The notes below the pieces were generated by a model that saw only the letters and a program-made list of their open reading frames with translations, had not been told where the DNA came from and searched no databases. A stretch of DNA of 64,000 nucleotides from the NCBI GenBank assembly GCA_041664165.1, contig JBAYLH010000003.1, forward strand, positions 3,247 to 67,246, written 5' to 3'. The stretch comes from Candidatus Buchananbacteria bacterium (lineage in GTDB: Bacteria > Patescibacteriota > Patescibacteriia > Buchananbacterales > UBA6539). Each line of letters opens with the position of its first letter. Positions within the stretch are counted from its first letter, which is position 1. The translations under genes and the position numbers were made by a program. Below are positions 4,925 through 32,355 of this stretch, in pieces.

Positions 4925-5494
4925 TTAAACAATCTTGGAAAAAAACATCACCAGCGCGCTGGAAACCGTTACCGAAACATTGTCATTTAATCGCAAGGGC
5001 AAGCTTTCAACAATCGCCGCGACCAGCGTCGCTTTCAAACTGACGGAAATTGCCATCGTACCGCTGATTTCCGGCAGCATCCATTTTAATAAAATAAACG
5101 AGCCCAAAGTGCCGAAAACTAAAAAGGCAACGCTGCCGGCGTAGCTTTTCTTCCGGTTCCAGGGTAATTCTTTAACCTTGAAATTCTTGCCGATCAAAGT
5201 CGCACTGCCGTCGCCCAAGGCCAAAATCGCCCAGGAAGCGGCAACAACGGGCAAAGGAAAAACTATCACTAAAAGCAACAAAATAAAAAAATATAAAACC
5301 GCACCTTCGCTGTATTTGCGCTCCACTCGGCGGTAAAAATAAGATTTCATTTTCAGCCTGGGAACGACAAAAAGCGTAATCAGCAGTAAAAACAAAAGTA
5401 AAATCACCGCTTGCCAGCGACTGATAAAACGCAGCAAAAATGCCAATAAAAATAAAAGGATGTGAACAATTTGGCGCTTTTCTTCAGAAAACAT
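4925..5494 (-). CDS. CTP-dependent polyprenol/dolichol kinase or CdsA-like membrane protein
   Basis: 189 aa, polytopic. Motif GDGSATLIGKNFKVKELPWNRKKSYAGSVAF resembles the SEC59/phytol-kinase/CTP_transf_1 family signature. Confidence 0.45.
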   Translation of the reverse strand: MFSEEKRQIVHILLFLLAFLLRFISRWQAVILLLFLLLITLFVVPRLKMKSYFYRRVERKYSEGAVLYFFILLLLVIVFPLPVVAASWAILALGDGSATLIGKNFKVKELPWNRKKSYAGSVAFLVFGTLGSFILLKWMLPEISGTMAISVSLKATLVAAIVESLPLRLNDNVSVTVSSALVMFFSKIV

Positions 5495-5548
5495 AATTTT
5501 AAAAACATTAGGCGTGCGACAAGGAATATGCCACTTGTCGCTAAACTA

Positions 5549-8500
5549 TTAACCAAAGATACTTTTCTCTTTATTTGGTTCGTCAGCTTTCGGCTCAGCT
5601 GGTTTTTCCATTTTTTCAATTTCAACCGGCGGCACCGATGGTTCCAGCTTAGTTTCAACCGGCGGCACCTGAGCCGTTGCCGAATCAATGTTTGTTTCAA
5701 TATTTTTAACTTTTTCTTCAAGCTGTTCTAAATCCTCTTTTTTCTCCTCAATGTCATGTTTAAGCTGCTCGGCTTGCTGCTTGGCCTTCATTAATTCCTC
5801 CAAAGAATCACGGCCGACTCCCGATAAACTTGGCAGCGGAGTTTGGACTGGCGGAGTCGGTGGCGCCACTGGGGTGATCGGCGGGGTTAAAATAGGTGCC
5901 GACGGCGGAGTCTGGACAGGCGCGGCTGGCGGGCTGCCGGCTTTAGCTTTTTGTAAACCAATATCCAAACTGACTACCGCTTCCTTGTCTTTGCTTAATA
6001 AATCAATCTCATTACTTTTGAAAGGATGATAGCCAAGTTTTTCGGCCGTCACATAATAAATATTGTTATTCACTAAAAACGAATACCGACCCTTGCCATC
6101 AGTTACACGGGTATCCAAAAGCTTATTATATTGCTTATCGTAAATGCGCAAAATCGCCCGCGAAACCGGCTTTCGGTTAGTGTGATCATAAACCATGCCC
6201 CAGTTGCGCGGCGGTTTTTGGTAGCCCAGCCGGCGGAATAAAGCATAAAGCAAACAATGAAAACATAGCATCACCAAAGTAAAAAGGCCGGGACTGATGA
6301 TTAAGGAAATGGTTGCCAACGGAATAGCGGCAAAGGCAGCCAAATATTGGAGCTTGCGCAAATAATATTGGAGGATAATTTTCGCCGCTGGTTTTTCTTC
6401 AATTTGCGGATCAATGGGAATATTGGCAGTAATATCGGCGCGCTGGCCCGTAACTTCAATCGTGCCGCCGTGATACAAGTCCAAATAGCTGACATCTTCT
6501 TTTAAATTTTGGAGATAAGCCGTTGGAAAATCAAATTTCGGCTTAGTCACGGTCAAATAATACCGGCCCGGATCAATCAAAAAGCTGTAACGGCCGAGCT
6601 TATCAGTTACCCGCGACTGGATTAGCCGGTTATTTTCCTTCTGATACAGCCGGACAATCGCCAAATCAACCGGCTGCTTGGTCAGGGCGTTGTAAATCAC
6701 GCCCCATTTTTTGCGACGGCGGCGGAACAGTACCGCAAACGGCTGAGTGATAAAATACTGCAAATAGGAAAAGAAATTAATAAAGGAAAAAGAAGCGAAG
6801 GTATTGACGACAACCGTGGCCACCAAGACCGGGGCGGCGACGGAAACATTGGCCTGCTCAACTTGCGGATTATCAATCACTTTCTCCACAACCTGATCGA
6901 TTATTTCTTTTTGAATAAATTTTTGAATATTTGCCGCTATCTCGGCCGCGCTAATCTCGCTATTATCCAATGGTTTTGAGCAGCCGGAATCGGCCGGGTA
7001 ATCAATTAAACCGTCTCGGTCGTTATCAATGCCATCAAGACACTGAGGTAAGTTAATTTTAAATTCCGGCGGCACGCCGCAGTCGGCCGGACAAGACCAA
7101 GTATTTTCACCGGTTTCGCAAAGCCGGTTGCCGCAGCAAGGCGCCGTCGCCAAACAGCTGCAGCTTGATAAACTGATCTGCTGGCAAATTCCGCAGGCTA
7201 CCTCGCAGCCGGGCTGGCACGAAATTACTTCCGCCGGCCGCCCGATATTTAAATCGCATTTATTAACATCGTAGCATTCGCGCTTTTGCAGCCCATTTTC
7301 GCAAGCGCCCCAGCCTAAGCAGGTCCAGCTTGGCGTACACGGCGTAACGCAGTCTTGCGGGCATGAATTGTTGCTTTCGCCGGTAGCGCAAATACCGTCG
7401 CCGCAGCACGGGATCATTTGTTCGCAAACGCACTGTTCCGCGTTAATCTGCTGGCACTGGCCGCAGCTTAATCCCTGGCAATTGCCATTTGGCCCGCCGT
7501 TGCAAACTTGCTGACTGGCCGGCGGATTAATCGGAACTTGGCAGCCGTTACTGTCAAAACATTGCCGGGTTTGCACCCCGCCGGCCGGCGGACAAACTGC
7601 CGGAGACCATGGCGTGCATTCCCATTGCGAGAGACAGGCAACGTGGCAATCAACGGAACAATTATAAGGATCTTCTCCCGGCGCTTCACAAACGGTATTG
7701 CCGCAACAGTTATTGGTGGCAACGCATTCGCAAGTAACCGGGTTTAGCTGCTGGCAGGTTCCGCAACTGACGCCGGGACAAACCTGGCAGCTTTCCGTGT
7801 ATTCGTAATTGGGCCGGCAAGGCGGAACGGTTTTGTCAACGCAACTTACGGTCAAAGTATCATTTGGCTGGCAAACCCCCGGCGTACAGGAAAAATTCGG
7901 CGTGCAGCTGCAAGCCGGATCACCCGGCGTTGAGCCGTCCGTACAAGTAGAGGCCGGGTAATCACAAAAACCATTGTGGTTGTCATCAAGGCCGTTAGTG
8001 CAATTTTCCACGCCGCCAGTGGTAACGAAAGAACCGGTATGAACCGTCTGTAAAGAGCCGGCACTGGCCGTAATCCGATAATAATAAACCGTATTTGACT
8101 GTAAACCGGTAATATTGTGGCTGAAATTGGTACCCGACAAACCACTGACTGAGCCGTCGCCAACTGCCGGCGTACTCCCCCATTCTAAAATATCAGCGGT
8201 CGGCTGGCATAAAGTTGACCAGCTGACGTTGCCGCTGGTTTGAGCCGCCGCAATTGAAACATTGCTAATCAATAGCTCAATTTGGCAAACTGAAGAACAG
8301 CAATCGCCGGAAACGGTATTGCCGTCATCGCAAGCTTCCCCGGAATCGATAATGCCGTTGCCGCAGCCGACTTCTAGCTGGCAAGCGCCTGAACAGCCAT
8401 CGCCGGAAACGGTATTACCATCATCGCATTCCTCTCCCGAATCTCTAGTCCCGTTGCCGCAGACGGCAATATAACAAGATTGGGTTGACGGCCAATTAGA

Positions 8501-13386: not shown

Positions 13387-13839
13387 GGGGATGTTTAAAA
13401 ATCGATAGAATCCAAATTTAAAGTTCTCAGATCAAGCATTGAAAATTTGGCTTGTTAATCTCAAATTTTCACCATGATAAGTGCCAAATCACTTGTCGCT
13501 CGAGTAAAAAGTGCTTTCAGTACTTTTGCTCTAGCACCCGTAATGGCCTAAAACCCATTACCATCAGCCCGGCGATACCTAATAACCGGTCACCCGCTTC
13601 GACTCGCGTCGAACTAGGTGCGCCCGCTAAGTCCTAACCGATGAAGCGAGGCGAGCTGGTGTCATAAATTAGGCACGGCAAATTAGTGTCTCACTGACTT
13701 GCTTAAACACCCGAGACTTTGGTTTTAAAGACTTTTGTTAATTTTATACTTTAAAACCGAAACAAAAAAATTGACTACACCTGTAAACCAACTTTGAATT
13801 TCTTTCTAGACAGGGGTGCAATTCCCCTCATCTCCACCA
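13387..13839 (+). ncRNA. ssrA: tmRNA (ssrA), putative
   Basis: It sits immediately downstream of smpB in a 780-bp non-coding gap. The 5' GGGGATG pairs with the 3' CATCTCC-ACCA as a 7-bp acceptor stem that includes the alanine-identity G3:U70 wobble. The T-arm is AGGGG-tgcaatt-CCCCT. CCA is encoded. A helix-2a-like pairing links AAATTTAAAG (13416-13425) with CTTTGAATTT. The hairpin GTAATGG-cctaaaac-CCATTAC places a TAA in its loop, as expected for the tag stop codon. Confidence 0.55.
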
Positions 13840-15413: not shown

Positions 15414-15487
15414 GGAGGCGTAGCTCAGTTGGTTAGAGCGTCTGCCTGTCACGCAGAAGGTCGTGGGTTCGAGCCCCATCGTCTCCG
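15414..15487 (+). tRNA. tRNA-Asp (anticodon GTC)
   Basis: The cloverleaf folds by hand: acceptor GGAGGCG/CGTCTCC, D-arm GCTC-AGTTGGTTA-GAGC, anticodon loop CTGTCAC, T-arm GTGGG-TTCGAGC-CCCAT, discriminator G. CCA is not encoded. Confidence 0.9.
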
Positions 15488-20677: not shown

Positions 20678-21565
20678 CTATTCTTTATCAGTAAAGACCA
20701 CTAACCGGTTGGGATAATTTTTGGAAATTTGATTCCAAACTCCGTCACAGGTAATAATGTTCAGATGTGCTTTTCCATCATTTGAGTCAAATATGTCTGA
20801 AGCATCCGCATCCGAATCATACCTTCGACTTTCGCGCACCACAAAGGCTGTAATCACCCCTTTATCATCTTCAACATATAATTTATCACCTTGGCGTAAT
20901 TTATATAAATTATCAAACACTGATGCTCTCCCGTTTTCCCTTCCATCATAGTGTCCAGCGATGACGGCGCTGCCATTCTCCCCGGGGCGCGGCCCGAGTT
21001 CAAACCAAGCTACATTTTCCTGGCTTTTAGATATATACATTGCTCCCTCGGGAGTAAGACACACAGGTTCAATAACAGAATCAACACTAATCCCTGGAAT
21101 TTTAAGACGCACCGGCAATCCAAAAACTGCTTGTCCTGGTTTTAAGAAAGAGACTTCATTTCCAACAAGTGGCATTGAGCTAATATGAATTGAATTTTTG
21201 GGAATAAAATCAATAATAGCGTTGAGCCTTATCAAAGTTTTGGGTCCTACCCGGCCATAGCCGGTAGTTTCAGGCGTTCCGTTAAAAACGATTCTCTGCG
21301 CCGTTTGAAATTTCTGCATTGCCGATTGGGTTAGAGAATCAAAGCATCCGGTAATAAAACCTGAAGGATAGATATCGGCATTTGTCGCCAGATATGCCTG
21401 AAGCTCAACCACATCCGATCCGCTTGAACCGAAATCCAACTGGCTGGTTATTGTGGCACTGGCGTTCTGAATTCCAATAAACAAAACAAAAAATATTACT
21501 ACCATCATTACCCCAAAAAGAAGGCCTTTTTCCGACATACTTTGTAGATTGATTGTTTTGTTCAT
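20678..21565 (-). CDS. sortase-family transpeptidase fused to an N-terminal peptidoglycan-binding (PG_binding_1-like) domain
   Basis: 295 aa with an N-terminal TM anchor. The GSSGSDVVELQAYL...GCFDSLTQSAMQKFQ segment is PG-binding-like. The C-terminal domain carries a sortase catalytic-triad layout: His (VIAGHYDG), then ~67 residues to Cys (LNIITCDG), then 14 residues to Arg (NRLVVF). The LKIPGISVDSVIEPV strand is also sortase-like. Confidence 0.5.
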   Translation of the reverse strand: MNKTINLQSMSEKGLLFGVMMVVIFFVLFIGIQNASATITSQLDFGSSGSDVVELQAYLATNADIYPSGFITGCFDSLTQSAMQKFQTAQRIVFNGTPETTGYGRVGPKTLIRLNAIIDFIPKNSIHISSMPLVGNEVSFLKPGQAVFGLPVRLKIPGISVDSVIEPVCLTPEGAMYISKSQENVAWFELGPRPGENGSAVIAGHYDGRENGRASVFDNLYKLRQGDKLYVEDDKGVITAFVVRESRRYDSDADASDIFDSNDGKAHLNIITCDGVWNQISKNYPNRLVVFTDKE

Positions 21566-23238: not shown

Positions 23239-24414
23239 CTATTCTAAGTTGTTACCAAACAGCAAGCCGGCAGTGCCCAAATTATTAAACTCTTTAATGA
23301 TTTTATTCCAGCTGGAACCAAAATGCTTTGCCGCCGCCAGTTCATTGATGATCCAGTGAAGTTTGTGGCTGGCGTCGACGAAAAATACTTCGACGGAATT
23401 CTTACTTTTTACCAGCCAGTCGGTTTGGATATCGGAAATGGAGTAGCCGGTTATAAACTGCTGGCCAAAATCCGAAGCTGGAGGGGCTAAAGGAGCTGCC
23501 TGCTGAGCTAACACTGCGTTAGAACAATCTTGCTGGTTGTTGAATGTTTGCAACCCCAAATACATATATGTACCACAAAATTCTTTTTGTGATTGGCAGG
23601 TTGTATTTGTATTATCAAACCAATAAAGATTCGAACATGTTAGTTGTGGCGTTGGCGGCAAAACGGCAACAGTTGGCATAGCAACCGCGTTAGAATCCAG
23701 CGTCACTGCGGTCTGAGCCAAAGCTCTGCCGTTTAAGGTTGCACCAGTATCTAAGACAATTGCTGTTTGGTCCAATATATTTCCATTAAAGACTGACGTT
23801 GTTCCAAGTGTCGTCTGTCCGGCAACAACCCAGAAAATATTACTCGCCTGGGCGCCACCGGCCAAAATAACGTGCGCCGCGGAACTCACAATAAGATTTT
23901 GGGCTATCTGAAAAATCCAAATTTCATTGGCTCCGCCCGAAAGCGTGACATCGGTTGGGATGATCAAACCAGTACCCCATTTATAAACACCAGAAGCAAG
24001 CGTCAATCCGCCGATATTTCCGGCGCCCAATTCAGTCACGCTCGGCGCCCGTCCCATGGTATCGGTGTATGCGGTTTGCATATCAAGTACCGCCGTGGTT
24101 AAGTTGGCAGGCGTTCGATTAGCATAGTCAGACGCATAGACTTTTCCCGTAATTAAAGCTGATGTGGAAAAGGCACTTGCCGCCGGCAAAATTAACGCAA
24201 ATCCGGTGATGTAACTTGCGGCGGCCGGACTCAATCCAATATCTCCAGTAATTGAGGTGGATCCGGTAGTTGAGATTCCGGTTTTTGCTAAAATCACAAA
24301 ATTACCTGAATCGCCGAGATTTACTGTTGCTACGCTTGCAACACTTGACCCAGCTAAGCCAAGTGTAAACACGGTAACCAATATAGCAACCAAAACTTTG
24401 TCAAACATTTTCAT
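23239..24414 (-). CDS. secreted ice-binding-like protein (DUF3494 family) with extra C-terminal Cys-containing domain
   Basis: 391 aa. Signal peptide, then NLGDSGNFVILAKTGISTTGSTSITGDIGLSP...ANEIWIFQI...ASNIFWVVAG...FNGNIL...TLNGRALAQTAVTL, which matches the DUF3494/IBP-1 fold signature almost motif for motif. Confidence 0.8.
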   Translation of the reverse strand: MKMFDKVLVAILVTVFTLGLAGSSVASVATVNLGDSGNFVILAKTGISTTGSTSITGDIGLSPAAASYITGFALILPAASAFSTSALITGKVYASDYANRTPANLTTAVLDMQTAYTDTMGRAPSVTELGAGNIGGLTLASGVYKWGTGLIIPTDVTLSGGANEIWIFQIAQNLIVSSAAHVILAGGAQASNIFWVVAGQTTLGTTSVFNGNILDQTAIVLDTGATLNGRALAQTAVTLDSNAVAMPTVAVLPPTPQLTCSNLYWFDNTNTTCQSQKEFCGTYMYLGLQTFNNQQDCSNAVLAQQAAPLAPPASDFGQQFITGYSISDIQTDWLVKSKNSVEVFFVDASHKLHWIINELAAAKHFGSSWNKIIKEFNNLGTAGLLFGNNLE

Positions 24415-25264: not shown

Positions 25265-25786
25265 ATGGCTCCAAAACAAGAGACACAGCTACAAACAGAA
25301 CTAACCATAGCCCACCACCGCTACGAGAAAAGGCTTAATGCCTACGCATTTTTCAAGGTCAATAACCGTGTAATTGGCGAAGATTTAGTGCAGGACACCT
25401 TCATAAAAACCTGGACCTACCTGGTCAGACGGGGAAAAATTGACATAATGAAAGCTTTTCTCTATCACGTCCTTAATGACTTGATCGTGGATGAATATCG
25501 AAAACATAAAACAATCTCACTTGATGCCCTCCTGGAAAAAGGTTTTGAACCGAGCACTGACAATTCCGGGCGTCTTTTCAATTTCTTGGATGGCAAGACC
25601 GCACTTCTATTAATTTCGCGCCTCCCCGAAAAATATCAAAAAGTGATGCAGATGCGGTATGTGCGAAATCTATCGCTTAAAGAAATATCCCTTATCACTG
25701 GACAGTCAAAAAACACCGTTACCGTGCAAGCCTATCGGGGACTAGCCAAGCTTAAATTATTATACAATTCCCCGGGCGTAATATAG
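25265..25786 (+). CDS. ECF-type RNA polymerase sigma factor (sigma-70 regions 2 and 4)
   Basis: 173 aa. Region-2-like VQDTFIKTW and a region-4 HTH (LSLKEISLITGQSKNTVTVQAYRGLAKLK). Confidence 0.8.
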   Translation: MAPKQETQLQTELTIAHHRYEKRLNAYAFFKVNNRVIGEDLVQDTFIKTWTYLVRRGKIDIMKAFLYHVLNDLIVDEYRKHKTISLDALLEKGFEPSTDNSGRLFNFLDGKTALLLISRLPEKYQKVMQMRYVRNLSLKEISLITGQSKNTVTVQAYRGLAKLKLLYNSPGVI

Positions 25787-25910: not shown

Positions 25911-27239
25911 CTATATAGATGATAATCCTGAGAGAACAACGATAGTGTCTGCCGCAATTGTTTTCTCATTATTATTTGCAGTTCCGCGAATTCGTACCGT
26001 ACTACCAATGGCGATGTTACTCCAGCTCCCAAGTTTTCCATCCACATATATAGTGGTCGAGTCATTAGTGCTAATCGTCCAGGTCTTGTCAGTATTATCT
26101 GTCTTAAAAAGCACAACTGTTAAGGTCTTCGCCGTACTGTCAATTGCCATGACTGAACCCAAGCGATGCGCCACGCCGAGCCGTTGAATCGAATCATCTT
26201 TGATTACTCGCGCCACAAGATGACCAGTGACCTCATCGCGCCGACCAATAATACGAATGGAGTCGCCCTCGCTCAATTCGTTTAAGAGCGCTTTCCCGTA
26301 GTATCTTCGCACCAGCATCGTATCACTTGTGATGTCAATCATAATCTTGGTTCCTGGAGCGCCGATCAGGTTATTGACATCGTTTTTTTGATAAAATTTT
26401 GAATCAGCAACTGTTGCCTCAATAGTAATTGGCACTGCTAGGTCTTGCGGGATCATGGTTATAGTTGCGGGTACCACCCATCGTGTCACGCGCATAAAAA
26501 GATCATTACCGCGACGCAGGACAACTAAGATACTGGCATTCCAGGTCAACCGATTACCGTCGTTATTATCAGTAACTCGTGCACGAATACGATCACCCAC
26601 CTGTAAATCAGTGATACTGGCTGGATTCTTAGTACCAGCGACCATATTTGCATTAGTTAAATTCAACGTGAGGGTATCAGTGCCCCATAAAACGTCGACT
26701 TTATTCGTATCTGTGTGGATTGCCGTAATCCAGCCATTAATTCCCTTATGCCCGGGTTTAAAAGCATTATTGCCGAGCCGAATTGCAACCAGCTCATCAC
26801 TATTTATAAAGTGCCGCGCCGTAAAAGTGATAGGATCTCCGGCGATCCAATCGCTGAGGCTCGCTTGGGCGCCGCCATTAGTAGTAATTCTGGTACTACT
26901 ATCAATTTCAAAGGTGTTGTCTTTAGTAACCCCATCAGAATTGGTTGTACGAATAATAATCGTCGTATTCTGGGCTGTCGTGTTGCCGATTTCAATCAAA
27001 GTGCCGGTACCAGACACTACTTCAATTGCTTCAGAGGTCGCTTCATTAATAGTACTTTCTTTTGCCCCGATCATCTCCGCTTTTACGTCAATATTTACAT
27101 CGGTGCTCACATGTTCGCCAATCCTTAAATTTTCATAGAGATTCAGGCCTAATGCACTAGCCGGTATTGGCGGACAGACTGCTATCATAAGTAGCCCAAG
27201 AACCAAAAATATTGTTTTCATTTTTCTCATATACTTCAT
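25911..27239 (-). CDS. secreted repeat protein (DUF5666-like beta repeats), hypothetical
   Basis: 442 aa with a signal peptide. Recurrent units of the type D.I.V.G....DE..G.L.A..I. Confidence 0.4.
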   Translation of the reverse strand: MKYMRKMKTIFLVLGLLMIAVCPPIPASALGLNLYENLRIGEHVSTDVNIDVKAEMIGAKESTINEATSEAIEVVSGTGTLIEIGNTTAQNTTIIIRTTNSDGVTKDNTFEIDSSTRITTNGGAQASLSDWIAGDPITFTARHFINSDELVAIRLGNNAFKPGHKGINGWITAIHTDTNKVDVLWGTDTLTLNLTNANMVAGTKNPASITDLQVGDRIRARVTDNNDGNRLTWNASILVVLRRGNDLFMRVTRWVVPATITMIPQDLAVPITIEATVADSKFYQKNDVNNLIGAPGTKIMIDITSDTMLVRRYYGKALLNELSEGDSIRIIGRRDEVTGHLVARVIKDDSIQRLGVAHRLGSVMAIDSTAKTLTVVLFKTDNTDKTWTISTNDSTTIYVDGKLGSWSNIAIGSTVRIRGTANNNEKTIAADTIVVLSGLSSI

Positions 27240-27295: not shown

Positions 27296-27625
27296 CTAAC
27301 GACCAAGATAGCCGGAGCCGGTGTCGATGTAGGCACTGATAGCTTGGCTCGGATAGATAACGACCGGCACGACTTGATTGGTTTCAATCGTCTCGGTGGC
27401 GATCGGCCTCGCACCGACGTTCAAAAAGTACTGGAGCGAACGCAGAGTTATAACCAAGGCCAAAACTACTAAAAAAACACCAAGCAAATTAATCACTAAT
27501 TCATAATTGGTTTGTTTGCGTGTTAATGCTTGCGTCTGTGATGAGCTACTAAACAACGACACCACATCGTAGCCAGGGTATATCACTTTCATATTATTTG
27601 TAGTTAAATAGATTTGCGTTATCAT
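27296..27625 (-). CDS. hypothetical single-pass membrane protein
   Basis: 109 aa with a central TM helix. Confidence 0.3.
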   Translation of the reverse strand: MITQIYLTTNNMKVIYPGYDVVSLFSSSSQTQALTRKQTNYELVINLLGVFLVVLALVITLRSLQYFLNVGARPIATETIETNQVVPVVIYPSQAISAYIDTGSGYLGR

Positions 27626-27723
27626 TGCTATATTAATGCCGTTTCAAAAACAAATATATTACAACTAAAAACTGACAGGGATTAGTAAAAAGGTATATAA
27701 TCAAAGTAACAAAACCTAATTTT

Positions 27724-28698
27724 ATGAAAAAAATCATTTTTATTGTCGCTTTAATATCAATATTAGCCACGGGCTGTCTGATTGACAGTACTCCCCCAAC
27801 CCGACCAGTCGCCTGCACGACGGAAGCTAAACTTTGCCCCGATGGCAGCTATGTAGGTAGAACTGGGCCAGGTTGTCAATTTAGGGCCTGTCCCACTCCA
27901 ATTCAAGCCACTTCGACACCGACAAGTTTAGATATAAATTGTAAATTAGACGCTGATTGTCCAACATCTGCCTATACTTGCCAAGCGATTGAAGGTTCAG
28001 GCACAGTTTATCCAAATAACACTAAACCGCCGTCTTACACGATTACTAAAGGAGTATGTAAAATTAAACTAGGATATAAATGCAACCTTGACGCTGAATG
28101 CCTGCCAGGCTTAATTTGTCATAATCGTTTATGCACTAATCCGATCGGTTCAAGTTGTAACGGCGCCGATGATACCAGCTGCCCAAATGGTTACAAATGT
28201 ATCCAAAGTTGCGGACCACCGATAGCCAGAAGTGGGGAACCACCGCCGCCATGGTTTTGTGAATTAAATGAGATTGCCGATAAACCAAAAAATTGTCCGA
28301 TTTGCCTTGCTTCTAACACAAAAATTTCTACCCCAAACGGGGAGGTAAATATCAGAGATATTAAAATCGGCATGCCAGTTTGGTCTTTGGACAGCAAAGG
28401 TAAAAGAATAGTCAGTAAAGTCATTACTGTTTCGCATACTCCAACGCCTAAGACACACAAAGTCATTCACTTAGTTTTGAATGACAAAAGAGAAGTTTGG
28501 GCTTCCTTTAATCATCCGACCGTAAATGGTTTGCCAATCGGCAGTCTAAAAATGGGTGAAACTTATAATGGCGGTCAAATAATAAAAACTGAGTTGATAC
28601 TATACTGGGATACGGCAACCTATGATTTATTGCCGAATAGCGACACTGGCTATTATTGGGCTAATAAAATTTTACTTGGCAGTACGTTAGGGCTATAA
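27724..28698 (+). CDS. lipoprotein with Cys-rich repeats and C-terminal Hint/BIL (bacterial intein-like) domain
   Basis: 324 aa. The lipobox is LATGC. Three or four CxxxxC-rich modules follow. The C-terminal region CLASNTKISTPNGEVNIRDIKIGMPVWSL...NHPTVNG...YDLLP..GYYWANKILLGS has the N-terminal Cys block and the C-terminal block of a Hint domain. Confidence 0.5.
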   Translation: MKKIIFIVALISILATGCLIDSTPPTRPVACTTEAKLCPDGSYVGRTGPGCQFRACPTPIQATSTPTSLDINCKLDADCPTSAYTCQAIEGSGTVYPNNTKPPSYTITKGVCKIKLGYKCNLDAECLPGLICHNRLCTNPIGSSCNGADDTSCPNGYKCIQSCGPPIARSGEPPPPWFCELNEIADKPKNCPICLASNTKISTPNGEVNIRDIKIGMPVWSLDSKGKRIVSKVITVSHTPTPKTHKVIHLVLNDKREVWASFNHPTVNGLPIGSLKMGETYNGGQIIKTELILYWDTATYDLLPNSDTGYYWANKILLGSTLGL

Positions 28699-28957
28699 AA
28701 TTAATCAAAAATAAAAGTCGCTCCGAGCGACAAAAAGTATTTCTAAAGAGGAGCCGAGGGGCGGTTTTTTGGTATAAAGAAAAACCACTTCATTTTTCGC
28801 CCGCTCGCCATGATTATCTTTCGCGCTTAAACGTGCGGCGGAAAAAAATGGATTACTGTTGAAAGTAAAATTTGGTATAATTAAAGTTGTTATGAAAAAC
28901 ACTATGAAAAAATCATTTTTGTGATATAATAAAAATAGGCGTAAATTTATTAACTTT

Positions 28958-29515
28958 ATGGTAAATAACAATACAATCAATAATGATGATATTTTGACTC
29001 GGAGAGATCAAAATCAAAATGCGCCACAGCGCCAACCGATTATTAGAAAGGGCTTTATACTATCAATAGTGTGTTCAATGATGATGCTTGCTGTCGTTAT
29101 TTGGATCATTAATTTTGGCATAAATATTTATCCTTGCGGTTATACTACTGAGGAATATAACAATAAGAATCTGATTCCGGGAAATAATATGATTATCAGC
29201 GGAATCGATACGGACTCAGTCCATTTAATTCCTAAAGGAAATCTTGGCAGTAATTTCCATGCCTTCTCTTGTCCTTATACAGTTCAACCGAAATTTGATT
29301 TTTTTATTTCTGATATTAATTATGGTTCTTTTGCCGGAGAAATCCCTAATGGAAAAGAATTAGAAATAGTTAGCAGCTATAGGATGATAAAACATGGAGT
29401 TAATGGCTTAAGTGAAAGTGGCACTTATGAATCTTATGTCTTATTAAAAGATGAAGGCGGCATCTATTATATGGCAGATTCTAATCTTTTTGTTAAATCT
29501 GTTAACTCTAAATAG
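28958..29515 (+). CDS. hypothetical N-terminally anchored protein (AT-rich gene)
   Basis: 185 aa. One TM helix, then a soluble domain. The surrounding ~0.8 kb is much more AT-rich than its neighbours. Confidence 0.35.
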   Translation: MVNNNTINNDDILTRRDQNQNAPQRQPIIRKGFILSIVCSMMMLAVVIWIINFGINIYPCGYTTEEYNNKNLIPGNNMIISGIDTDSVHLIPKGNLGSNFHAFSCPYTVQPKFDFFISDINYGSFAGEIPNGKELEIVSSYRMIKHGVNGLSESGTYESYVLLKDEGGIYYMADSNLFVKSVNSK

Positions 29516-30295: not shown

Positions 30296-30619
30296 ATGCC
30301 ACTTAAACAATTACACGTCGTAAAAAAAATAAAATTTCTGGCATCTAGTATTTTTATCACCAAAAAACAAATAGTCGACGAGGTAGAAAAAAATGCTCAA
30401 AAACATCACCTAATCAATCAGAGGCAAGAAGAAGAAGACGATGCCAGAGTTGACCATGCTCAAAAGGAGCTAAAAAAAGAAAATGAAATAGCAAACTCTA
30501 ACTATTATTCACTAATATTTAAGACCTTAGTAATAAGCGTTTTTGTTAATTTAATTTTTTTAGCCGCTTTGGCGTTAGTTATAATTTTTTTTATAAACAA
30601 AAATAATTACTATGGCTAA
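30296..30619 (+). CDS. hypothetical protein with C-terminal TM helix
   Basis: 107 aa, charged N-terminal half, hydrophobic C-terminus. Confidence 0.3.
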   Translation: MPLKQLHVVKKIKFLASSIFITKKQIVDEVEKNAQKHHLINQRQEEEDDARVDHAQKELKKENEIANSNYYSLIFKTLVISVFVNLIFLAALALVIIFFINKNNYYG

Positions 30620-31361
30620 AAAAATAAAAAAATCCCACTTGCTATCAATATTAGTAATTATTTTTTTAATGCTGGCCTGGATTGTATTTGAATTGTCGCT
30701 TGATGACCCCAAAGGAAAGGTGAATGTGGTTAAAAAAATTTATTACCAGACCGTCCGCATTATTATCCCAATTAAACCCGCCATTAGGCTGGCTGTCCCC
30801 TACCACCGCCAGGAACATGCTCTCTCTTGCGAAGTTGCTTCGTTACTGATGGCTTTACAATACCGCGGCGTCAAGATAACTGAAAACGAACTGATTCAAC
30901 AACTACCCGTTTCCGACCCAGGCCCGCGCCAAAAAAACAATACTTGGGGTGATCCGAATTCAGGCTTTGTCGGTAATATCAATGGCACCATGCCCGATAC
31001 CGGCTACGGCGTTTACCAGCAGCCGATTTATGATTTAGCGGCCAAATATCGCCAGGCCAAAATTATTACCGACGGGACAATAACTGACTTAATAACCGAA
31101 TTGGGCAACAATAACCCAATTGTGGTTTGGGGCGTAGTAGTCGGCAGAAACAAAGATATTTCCTGGAAAACGCCGGCCGGCAAAATTATTACGGCGCAAT
31201 TGGACGAACACGCTCGGACTTTAATCGGTTTTACCGGCAAATCGGATAATCCGGAATTAATGATTCTTTTGGATCCGCTTTATGGTGAAATCAGGCTGAA
31301 GGTCGCGGATTTTGTAAAAAATTGGGAACTGATGGGGAAAAAAGCCGTGGTCATTTACTAA
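30612..31361 (+). CDS. peptidase C39-like (papain-fold) domain protein, membrane anchored
   Basis: 249 aa with an N-terminal TM. YHRQEHALSCEVASLLMALQYRG resembles the catalytic Cys block of C39_2/BtrH-like peptidases. Confidence 0.45.
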   Translation: MAKKIKKSHLLSILVIIFLMLAWIVFELSLDDPKGKVNVVKKIYYQTVRIIIPIKPAIRLAVPYHRQEHALSCEVASLLMALQYRGVKITENELIQQLPVSDPGPRQKNNTWGDPNSGFVGNINGTMPDTGYGVYQQPIYDLAAKYRQAKIITDGTITDLITELGNNNPIVVWGVVVGRNKDISWKTPAGKIITAQLDEHARTLIGFTGKSDNPELMILLDPLYGEIRLKVADFVKNWELMGKKAVVIY

Positions 31362-31749: not shown

Positions 31750-32355
31750 ATGAAAAAATTGATAATTTTATTAGCTACCAGCTTTTTCCTAATTTCCGGC
31801 TGTACGGTTATAAATAACCAAAAAGACGGACTACCGCCAATTAAAACTGCTAACACCTACATTAACGACCAATACAATTTTTCCATTCAGTACCCCGATG
31901 ACCTGGCGCCGACATCAACTTTTCAGGTTTCTTACATTGTTTCCGATGCCTGGAGCTTGCTGGCCAGTCCGACTGGCACTGGCGATAAAATTGTCGCTTT
32001 TGTCGTTTCAGGCTCAAATAATATCACCAGCGCCGAACTGCGAATTGGCGCTAACCGCGACCAAACCGAAGTCAGCAAATGTACTAAGGCGCCGGATTTT
32101 GTCATCCCCAACGTTAAAAATGTTACAATTAACGGCACCAATTTTATCGATTTTGAATGGAACGACGCGGCGATGAGCCACTACAATTTCGTCCGAGCCT
32201 ACCGCACGGTAAAAAATAATGTCTGCATCGCCGTTGAGCTTTTTGTTGCCGGGACTAACCCGCAAGTTTACGACCCACCGGCCACGCCGCCATTTACCCA
32301 AGACTATGCTTTTGCCCAACTCGAAAAAATTCTGCAGACGCTGACTTTTCACTAA
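31750..32355 (+). CDS. lipoprotein, hypothetical
   Basis: 201 aa. The lipobox is LISGC. A rho-independent terminator (CCCCGG...CCGGGG + T-run) follows at ~32365-32400. Confidence 0.45.
   Translation: MKKLIILLATSFFLISGCTVINNQKDGLPPIKTANTYINDQYNFSIQYPDDLAPTSTFQVSYIVSDAWSLLASPTGTGDKIVAFVVSGSNNITSAELRIGANRDQTEVSKCTKAPDFVIPNVKNVTINGTNFIDFEWNDAAMSHYNFVRAYRTVKNNVCIAVELFVAGTNPQVYDPPATPPFTQDYAFAQLEKILQTLTFH

Follow-up and report, generated by a model that had tools for sequence, protein, structure and literature searches.

A cysteine-rich protein with a C-terminal Hint domain is encoded in a 64,000-nucleotide stretch of a Candidatus Buchananbacteria genome (contig JBAYLH010000003.1 of GenBank assembly GCA_041664165.1, positions 3,247 to 67,246 of the forward strand; hereafter the window). 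By its conserved motifs and by analogy with described relatives, this Hint protein is probably a Sec-exported surface protein, in which four disulfide-rich modules are followed by a small Hint domain resembling the B-type bacterial intein-like (BIL) domains, and the precursor would cleave itself at I193/C194 (the slash marks the junction here and below). We infer from conservation that cleavage occurs, where it occurs and what accepts the acyl group. The gene and its Hint domain are located as follows:

27724..28698, plus strand: coding sequence of the 324-aa Cys-rich Hint protein, ATG start, stop codon included
28303..28683, plus strand: Hint domain, residues C194-S320, 127 aa, of mini-intein size and without endonuclease insert

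The open reading frame (ORF) had been correctly delimited in an earlier prediction made from the sequence alone (the original prediction). Its product was found to be 100% identical to P0001, listed at NCBI as 'MAG: Hint domain-containing protein [Patescibacteria group bacterium]' (MAG, metagenome-assembled genome), and the domain-level call is already in public annotation. The same locus was found on contigs of 59 and 258 kb. Taken alone, the gene changes little, since an annotation exists and the expected chemistry is of the known BIL and Hedgehog kind. What is added here is the family picture, that of a large, cross-phylum family of secreted cargo proteins with a terminal Hint domain and a Hedgehog-like Ser/Thr end.

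Assignment of the C-terminal domain

Relatives were collected by phmmer with residues 191-324 as the query against a library of size 1.84e9, and were represented by clusters at 50% identity. A total of 1315 cluster representatives were found at E <= 1e-3, 983 at E <= 1e-10 and 197 at E <= 1e-30. Conservation is given below for alignments of 120 close homologues and of 148 representatives.

The original prediction had placed a Hint or BIL domain of about 140 residues at the C-terminus, and had proposed hidden Markov model (HMM) searches and structure prediction as checks. Both support the assignment and came out opposite to the refuting outcome it had named (no Hint-family HMM match together with a fold of another kind), but the domain is shorter, with 127 residues and a tail of four. 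The NCBIfam model TIGR01445 (intein_Nterm, the intein N-terminal splicing region) matched residues 194-265 above its cut-off (27.0 bits, cut-off 24.5, E = 6.5e-6). The best Pfam family was Hint_2 (PF13403), with E = 6.5e-4 and a match to profile positions 1-42 only. When matches among relatives were counted at E <= 0.01 or 0.001, Hint_2 was also the top Pfam match in 119 of the 120 close homologues and in 110 of 126 distant representatives (best E = 6.7e-11), and many relatives bear a precomputed PF13403 assignment. The Pfam Hint family, which is of Hog type, reached E = 0.28 with the Hint protein, and PT-HINT was touched weakly by 2 of the 120 homologues. A profile of the family compared with PDB sequences retrieved a consensus DnaE-type intein at E = 2.9e-6, and gp41-1, the C. 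thermocellum BIL and the Hedgehog domain HhC (1at0, 6tyy) were sub-significant (E 0.006 to 0.84). The search of a plasmid collection gave a weak match only, to the Hint domain of an RHS protein.

An AlphaFold2 model built from 120 sequences had a mean predicted local distance difference test score (pLDDT) of 89.5, with values of 93-98 in the Hint part. A Foldseek search of the model against PDB returned 58 matches at E <= 1e-3, and all among the 50 matches listed were Hint proteins. Matches with a Foldseek probability of 1.00 included the Ssp DnaB mini-intein (E = 6e-8), gp41-1, Tetrahymena BUBL BIL2, the C. thermocellum BIL 2lwy and HhC 1at0 (E = 3e-5). The TM-scores (TMt) to inteins, BIL domains and HhC ranged from 0.66 to 0.79, with the BIL 2lwy at 0.79 and HhC 1at0 at 0.66. 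As judged from profile matches and the structural model, whose agreement goes far beyond chance, the C-terminal domain is thus a member of the HINT superfamily with the horseshoe-like, all-beta Hint fold.

Conserved positions of the Hint domain

The positions on which the expected chemistry would depend were located in the gene as follows:

28303..28305, plus strand: codon TGC of C194, position-1 nucleophile, block A
28456..28458, plus strand: codon CAC of H245, family-specific conserved His
28504..28515, plus strand: block B, S261-F-N-H264, TxxH equivalent
28618..28626, plus strand: block F, T299-Y300-D301
28681..28698, plus strand: S320 (terminal-Asn position), T321 (+1), L322, G323, L324 and the stop codon

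Two strings had been quoted in the original prediction as matching the N- and C-terminal splicing blocks, and both were found, LASNTKISTPNGEVNIRDIKIGMPVWSL directly after C194 and YDLLPNSDTGYYWANKILLGSTLGL at the end of the protein. Block G is only partly intein-like, as it has no His-Asn. C194 was a Cys in 147 of the 148 representatives, and the 120 homologues had 119 Cys and one Ser in this position. In block B a Ser replaces the Thr of TxxH; S261 and H264 were invariant (148/148), and the block aligns to the TxxH or SxxH of gp41-1, BIL and the Cat intein. Block F was equally strict, with T299 and D301 invariant (148/148) and 'YDLL' aligned to the intein block F 'YDLL'. R256 and Y311 were also invariant in the family. 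H245 was conserved in 120/120 homologues and 142/148 representatives, and is predicted to lie opposite H264 by the beta-hairpin register of the modelled strands 246-252 and 257-260. The catalytic set for the N-terminal (thio)ester, comprising C194, S261-x-x-H264 and D301, is intact and near-invariant.

This pattern bears on the suggestion that the Hint domain is a non-catalytic structural or binding module which stays attached without self-cleavage. Such a module would be in keeping with the sub-threshold Hint_2 score and with the missing C-terminal catalytic motif, but the near-invariance falls exactly on the residues of the N-to-S acyl shift (C1, SxxH and the block F Asp) across phyla, and at <=50% identity it is hard to square with a mere scaffold. 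We consider a non-catalytic domain unlikely.

For the C-terminal end, the register was taken from the gp41-1 alignment, in which ANDIL-THN (chain end) stands against ANKIL-LGS. By this register S320 corresponds to the terminal Asn, G319 to the penultimate His and T321 to position +1. S320 was conserved in 146, T321 in 144 and L322 in 142 of the 148 representatives, and T321 would be the nucleophile at the +1-equivalent position. Across the family, residue 319 was Gly, Lys, Ala or Asp and never His, and residue 320 was never Asn. The tail beyond L322 had 1 aa in 79, 2 aa in 32 and <=5 aa in 130 of the 148; its first residue is usually Lys, Arg or His, and the tail of the Hint protein is G-L. 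The C-extein of about ten residues foreseen by the original prediction shrinks to four, T321-L-G-L.

Succinimide-driven C-cleavage and splicing depend on the terminal Asn (PMC12054796), and with Gly-Ser in place of His-Asn neither would be expected here. Autocleavage or ligation had both been envisaged; the first agrees with the N-terminal (thio)ester chemistry expected from the conserved residues, whereas ligation is not expected. It is very improbable that the domain is a genuine intein or splicing element joining the cargo to the few C-terminal residues, or a pre-toxin HINT from which a downstream toxin is freed. The +1 Thr, the mini-intein-like sequence and fold, and the two homologues that touch PT-HINT are set against the lack of a terminal Asn, Gln or Asp, of a penultimate His, and of a C-extein or toxin domain in a protein that ends 4 aa on. 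Furthermore, there is no homing endonuclease, no insertion in a conserved host protein and no immunity-like conserved neighbour among 81 loci. The intein and toxin-release readings were rejected on the absence of the Asn, of a C-extein and of a downstream domain.

Expected course of processing

After export and folding, the free thiol of C194 would attack the carbonyl of I193 in an N-to-S acyl shift, with help from S261/H264 of block B and D301 of block F. The (thio)ester would then be resolved, most simply by water, and the 131-residue Hint piece would split from the cargo. The cargo would remain membrane-held via its N-terminal anchor and would carry the new, disulfide-stapled end ...C191-P-I193. 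The B-type BILs, in which only the C-terminal one of the intein motifs is missing, cleave at the N-terminus (PMC7765530), and an attack of this kind is also how Hedgehog processing starts.

It was recently shown for Hedgehog that the acyl group moves to C143, which gives a branched intermediate; C143 is described as 'equivalent to C+1 in intein splicing' (PMC12054796). Because S320-T321 mirror Ser142-Cys143 of Hedgehog, T321 may likewise carry a branched ester for a short time. This addition to the scheme is reasonable, though less likely than not, and the register between the two proteins is uncertain by one residue.

Several points weigh against self-cleavage by a B-type-BIL-like domain. The Hint_2 score of 20.5 bits lies below the gathering threshold of 28.4 bits, over profile positions 1-42 only. 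Furthermore, as the anchor is N-terminal, cleavage would free the Hint domain and not the cargo, and the purpose of plain hydrolysis is not evident. Finally, C191-P-I-C194 forms a CXXC motif, which could lock C194 in an extracellular disulfide.

The junction and the probable pairing of cysteines

The junction C191-P192-I193 was nearly as conserved as the Hint domain (C 140/148, P 135/148 and I 118/148 representatives), and was kept across proteins with unrelated upstream domains. Ahead of C(-3), the cargo has an odd number of cysteines in 114 of the 148 representatives, and 17 in the Hint protein once C18 is dropped. In the rare variants with PRPI/C or PHPI/C, where C(-3) is absent, the equivalent of C163 is absent as well (QSCGPP replaced by IDASP in L043 and L049). 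From the odd parity and the joint loss of C163 and C191, C191 is probably bonded into the cargo, which would leave C194 unpaired and free, and the alignments suggest a C163-C191 disulfide.

The same data bear on a redox-gated cleavage, in which a C191-C194 disulfide within C-P-I-C would trap the precursor outside the cell until contact with a reductant triggers cleavage. The conservation of C(-3) (140/148), P(-2) (135/148) and C1 (147/148) would suit such a gate. Among the Foldseek matches was also PDB 3nzm, an intein precursor with an engineered CPGC 'redox trap'. A natural precedent exists in Hedgehog, where C1 is disulfide-bonded with C143 in the endoplasmic reticulum (PMC12054796). However, the odd cargo count points to a partner for C(-3) within the cargo, L043 and L049 have lost both C(-3) and its supposed partner, the equivalent of C163, and some members with PRPI/C or PHPI/C, which lack C(-3), retain every other motif. 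A redox gate is on these grounds rather improbable.

Relation to known Hint systems

The closest family is Hint_2 with the B-type BILs, the latter compared by their description in PMC7765530. Within Pfam, Hint_2 matches best, and the domain retains blocks A, B and F but lacks the C-terminal His-Asn; in addition, both occur in secreted, variable, non-conserved proteins, and N-terminal cleavage is what would be expected by that definition. The Hint protein differs in its score (20.5 vs 28.4 bits), in a family signature of its own and in the position of the domain, which is always the last. The signature consists of the C-P-I/C-L-[AS] junction, H245, the invariant R256, and an S-T-L end followed by about one basic residue. 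A case could be made for treating the clade as a new subtype of BIL. The Hint protein fails a defining feature of each of the canonical intein, the A-type BIL, the Hog domain and PT-HINT.

The A-type BIL of C. thermocellum (BIL4, 2lwy) gave the top TM-score, with a root-mean-square deviation of 2.2 Å over 139 columns, and blocks A and B align. The A-type BILs have a conserved C-terminal His-Asn and no +1 nucleophile, and undergo C-terminal cleavage via the Asn (PMC7765530), whereas the Hint protein has Gly-Ser-Thr in this position. The class 1 mini-inteins (gp41-1 6qaz, Ssp DnaB 1mi8) share the size of about 125-140 aa, the fold, Cys1, the block B His, 'YDL' in block F, 'ANxIL' in block G and a +1 hydroxyl residue. 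The Hint protein differs from them by its lack of the terminal Asn, the penultimate His and a C-extein, by being extracytoplasmic, and by not residing in a conserved housekeeping protein.

PT-HINT of polymorphic toxins, an autopeptidase of the Hint type, also occurs in secreted proteins of bacteria (PMC3482391), but is located just upstream of a released C-terminal toxin, whereas the Hint protein ends there and has no linked immunity gene. Bacterial C-terminal Hint-like proteins described by Bürglin in 2008, such as Myxococcus MXAN_6253 and Photorhabdus plu1731, are also secreted and have conserved cysteines upstream of the domain (PMC2362128). Their junctions, G/CIAEGT and S/CMAAGT, differ from CPI/CLASNT, as does their taxonomic range, and they probably form a separate subgroup.

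Hedgehog HhC (1at0) resembles the Hint protein in having a secreted cargo, a C-terminal Hint domain starting from a Cys, a TxxH-type block B and a Ser plus nucleophile at the Asn/+1 positions (S142-C143 vs S320-T321), and N-terminal chemistry only would be expected in the Hint protein as well. Unlike HhC, the Hint protein has no sterol-recognition region and no conserved Asp or His at the position aligned to Hedgehog D46, and its +1 residue is Thr where Hedgehog has Cys, given a register uncertainty of one residue. Structurally, it is nearer to mini-inteins and BILs than to HhC. Residue 238, which falls on D46 in the ungapped HMM alignment to 6tyy/1at0, was considered as its equivalent and rejected, as this position was variable in the family. 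The invariant H245 is located 7 residues past residue 238.

In a Hog-like acyl transfer, the cargo thioester made by the Hint domain would be passed, possibly via a branched ester on T321, to an acceptor other than water. Candidate acceptors would be a lipid, an amine or hydroxyl of the cell envelope, or a partner or host molecule, and the cargo would be modified or doubly anchored in Hedgehog style. As in Hedgehog, a secreted cargo comes first and the Hint domain stands at the end, and the Ser-Thr at the Asn/+1 positions recalls Ser142-Cys143. The extra near-invariant H245, predicted beside H264 in the model, and the C-P-I of positions -3 to -1, kept over unrelated cargos, also fit a transfer, and plain hydrolysis has no obvious benefit for an N-terminally anchored protein. 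On the other hand, the Hint domain is followed by a tail of 1-4 aa and by no region for sterol or adduct recognition, the Pfam Hint family of Hog type matched at E = 0.28 only, and the D46-aligned position varied between Lys, Arg, Ser and His. Nor was a partner gene conserved among the 81 loci, and no common acceptor is evident for a family found in candidate phyla radiation (CPR) bacteria, Chloroflexota and archaeal-labelled MAGs. The cell envelopes of CPR, Chloroflexota and archaea differ. That the 'cargo-CPI/C-Hint-STL' proteins are a prokaryotic counterpart of Hedgehog/Hog processing, with a T321 relay and a non-water acceptor in the envelope or host, is unlikely, and is kept in consideration because shedding the Hint domain off an anchored protein brings no obvious gain. 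If true, it would amount to sortase-independent covalent fixing or lipidation of surface proteins in episymbiotic CPR, Chloroflexota and Thaumarchaeota.

Apart from this, a family domain of 127 aa, compact and tractable, offers a prokaryotic system for studying how non-splicing Hint domains resolve the thioester. It could also be used to probe whether Hedgehog-type acyl transfer has prokaryotic relatives, and may explain how some of the disulfide-rich surface proteins of CPR mature.

The N-terminus and the cysteine-rich cargo

The part of the Hint protein ahead of the junction was divided as follows:

27724..27777, plus strand: signal peptide with lipobox L-A-T-G/C18 (residues 1-18), by sequence pattern
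27814..27891, plus strand: module M1, residues 31-56, CTTEAKLCPDGSYVGRTGPGCQFRAC, 4 Cys
27940..28134, plus strand: modules M2+M3, residues 73-137, 8 Cys
28156..28302, plus strand: module M4, residues 145-193, 6 Cys, ending in the junction motif C191-P192-I193

The lipobox LATGC named in the original prediction is present as a sequence pattern. The N-terminus, MKKIIFIVALISILATG/C18, has a basic n-region and a hydrophobic core, and read as a pattern LATGC fits a PROSITE-type lipobox; ILATG/C18 satisfies [LVI][ASTVI][GAS]C. The surface protein is on this basis probably lipid-anchored. A lipobox-like N-terminus was found in about 11 of the 120 homologues, and most others had a plain hydrophobic anchor or signal, so by this comparison the lipobox is not a trait of the Hint family. 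A second N-terminus of lipobox type in the window, MKKLIILLATSFFLISGC, was found in the ORF at 31750-32355 on the plus strand, and is consistent with lipoprotein processing in this organism.

Many CPR homologues started with M-x(1-6)-[KRQN]-G-F-[AISV]-P and then had a hydrophobic helix (P0002, P0003, P0004, P0008, P0017, P0020, P0027, P0032 and others, as well as L066 and L069). N-termini of this GF-[AISV]-P type are like a class III (pilin-like) signal, but without the Glu at +5.

The Hint protein has 20 cysteines, namely C18, eighteen within residues 31-191, and C194. Those of the cargo are grouped 4+4+4+6 (31/38/51/56; 73/79/86/112; 120/126/132/137; 145/153/159/163/179/191), in agreement with the '3-4 Cys-rich modules' of the original prediction. 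Across the 120 homologues, the four modules behaved as three evolutionary units, M1, M2+M3 and M4. M1 has the consensus CTxEAKxCPDGSxVGRxGPxCEFxxCP, and neither Pfam nor NCBIfam has a model that matches it. The module recurs in CPR proteins, with five tandem copies in P0076 and two each in L043 and L049, and in L015 a copy is located directly behind the lipobox of an unrelated lipoprotein (about 5380-5790). From this distribution M1 looks like a generic anchor-proximal module. M2 and M3 were jointly absent from about 30 short homologues of the 120. M4 was present in all 120 homologues, as the constant companion of the Hint domain in the CPR branch, and its invariant positions among them were C153, C159, G164, P166, C179, C191 and P192.

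An AlphaFold model of the cargo alone (residues 28-193) had a pLDDT of 86.8. Foldseek found no PDB match to this fold at E <= 1e-3, the best being the Dkk4 N-terminal region at E = 0.087, and the model had a local knottin/Dickkopf-like similarity in M3. The sequence of M3 (120-137) is likewise knottin/EB/Dickkopf-like, with weak and local similarities, and EB, Squash and Dickkopf matched the cargo at sub-threshold HMM scores.

Distribution of the family

In the best 150 relatives, Hint was the last domain, with 14 to 863 residues ahead of it. Of the 148 representatives, 124 had a hydrophobic signal or anchor at the N-terminus. The Pfam domains detected in the cargos were all of extracytoplasmic types (Dockerin_1, PG_binding_1, PKD, FGE-sulfatase, Kazal, beta-helix, Gmad2 and DUF5666), and in the Pfam scan of the distant representatives most cargos had no match.

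A scan of species-representative genomes gave 344 relatives. The record titles of the loci of the best 80 of these, with the labels as given in the records, were distributed as follows:

Patescibacteria/CPR lineages: 42/80 loci
Chloroflexota/Anaerolineae: 14/80 loci
'uncultured Gammaproteobacteria': 12/80 loci
unspecified 'bacterium': 5/80 loci
Thaumarchaeota: 2/80 loci
Bacteroidota, Binatia, Gemmataceae, Methylomirabilota and Sulfotelmatobacter: 1/80 loci each

Several of the 'Gammaproteobacteria' loci are suspected to be mis-binned, because they show CPR-type architecture. The members from Thaumarchaeota-labelled MAGs had the NCBIfam domain WING-49 in their cargo (L055, 5362-6414, E = 1.6e-22; L080, 2903-4192, E = 6.8e-18). 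By eye, another stretch of the cargo of Thaumarchaeota-labelled members was seen to recur in some members from CPR, e.g. L066 and L069. The sharing of cargo between Thaumarchaeota-labelled and CPR members suggests that the Hint cassette or whole genes move between phyla. No paper linking Hint domains with CPR/Patescibacteria was found in the literature searched.

Genomic surroundings

Two further elements were noted next to the gene:

27672..27701, plus strand: promoter-like site CTGACA-18 nt-TATAAT, 11/12 consensus positions, by consensus match only
28717..28731, strand unassigned: GC-rich hairpin GTCGCTCCGAGCGAC, 19 nt past the stop codon of the Hint gene

The promoter-like site is sigma-70-like and strong, and ends 22 nt before the ATG. 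The hairpin has its T-run on the minus-strand side, and no minus-strand gene runs toward it; its role as terminator of the Hint gene is uncertain.

When ORFs within 4 kb of the Hint genes were clustered by blastp, no neighbouring family was common to more than 6 of 81 loci, and the neighbours in the window were not shared with the other Hint loci among these 81. No paralogue of the Hint gene was found in the window by tblastn. The Hint gene is a stand-alone gene. The next ORF, 28958-29515 on the plus strand, is AT-rich as originally noted (GC 32.8% vs 42.1% in the window) and encodes a predicted membrane protein of 185 aa without Pfam match. It is considered unrelated to the Hint gene because of the lack of a conserved neighbour across the 81 loci. 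Promoter-like -10 elements are located upstream of it, and it may have been acquired separately.

A cluster of surface and regulatory genes is located near the Hint gene. It includes a sortase fused to PG_binding_1 (20678-21565, minus strand) and an Ice_binding-like protein (23239-24414, minus strand, 254.8 bits). A sigma-70 family factor with regions 2 and 4 only (25265-25786, plus strand) is like those of the extracytoplasmic function (ECF) type, and a Peptidase_C39_2 protein is encoded at 30612-31361 on the plus strand. None of these four genes was conserved beside Hint genes elsewhere. Adjoining the sigma factor and divergent from the Hint gene are two minus-strand ORFs, 25911-27239 for a secreted repeat protein of 442 aa with a weak, sub-threshold CusF-like match (22.3 bits), and 27296-27625 for a membrane protein of 109 aa. 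Together with the sigma factor they could form a sigma, anti-sigma and surface-protein unit. Elsewhere in the window, a tmRNA gene was found at 13387-13839 (plus strand, Rfam RF00023, 98.1 bits) and a tRNA gene at 15414-15487 (plus strand).

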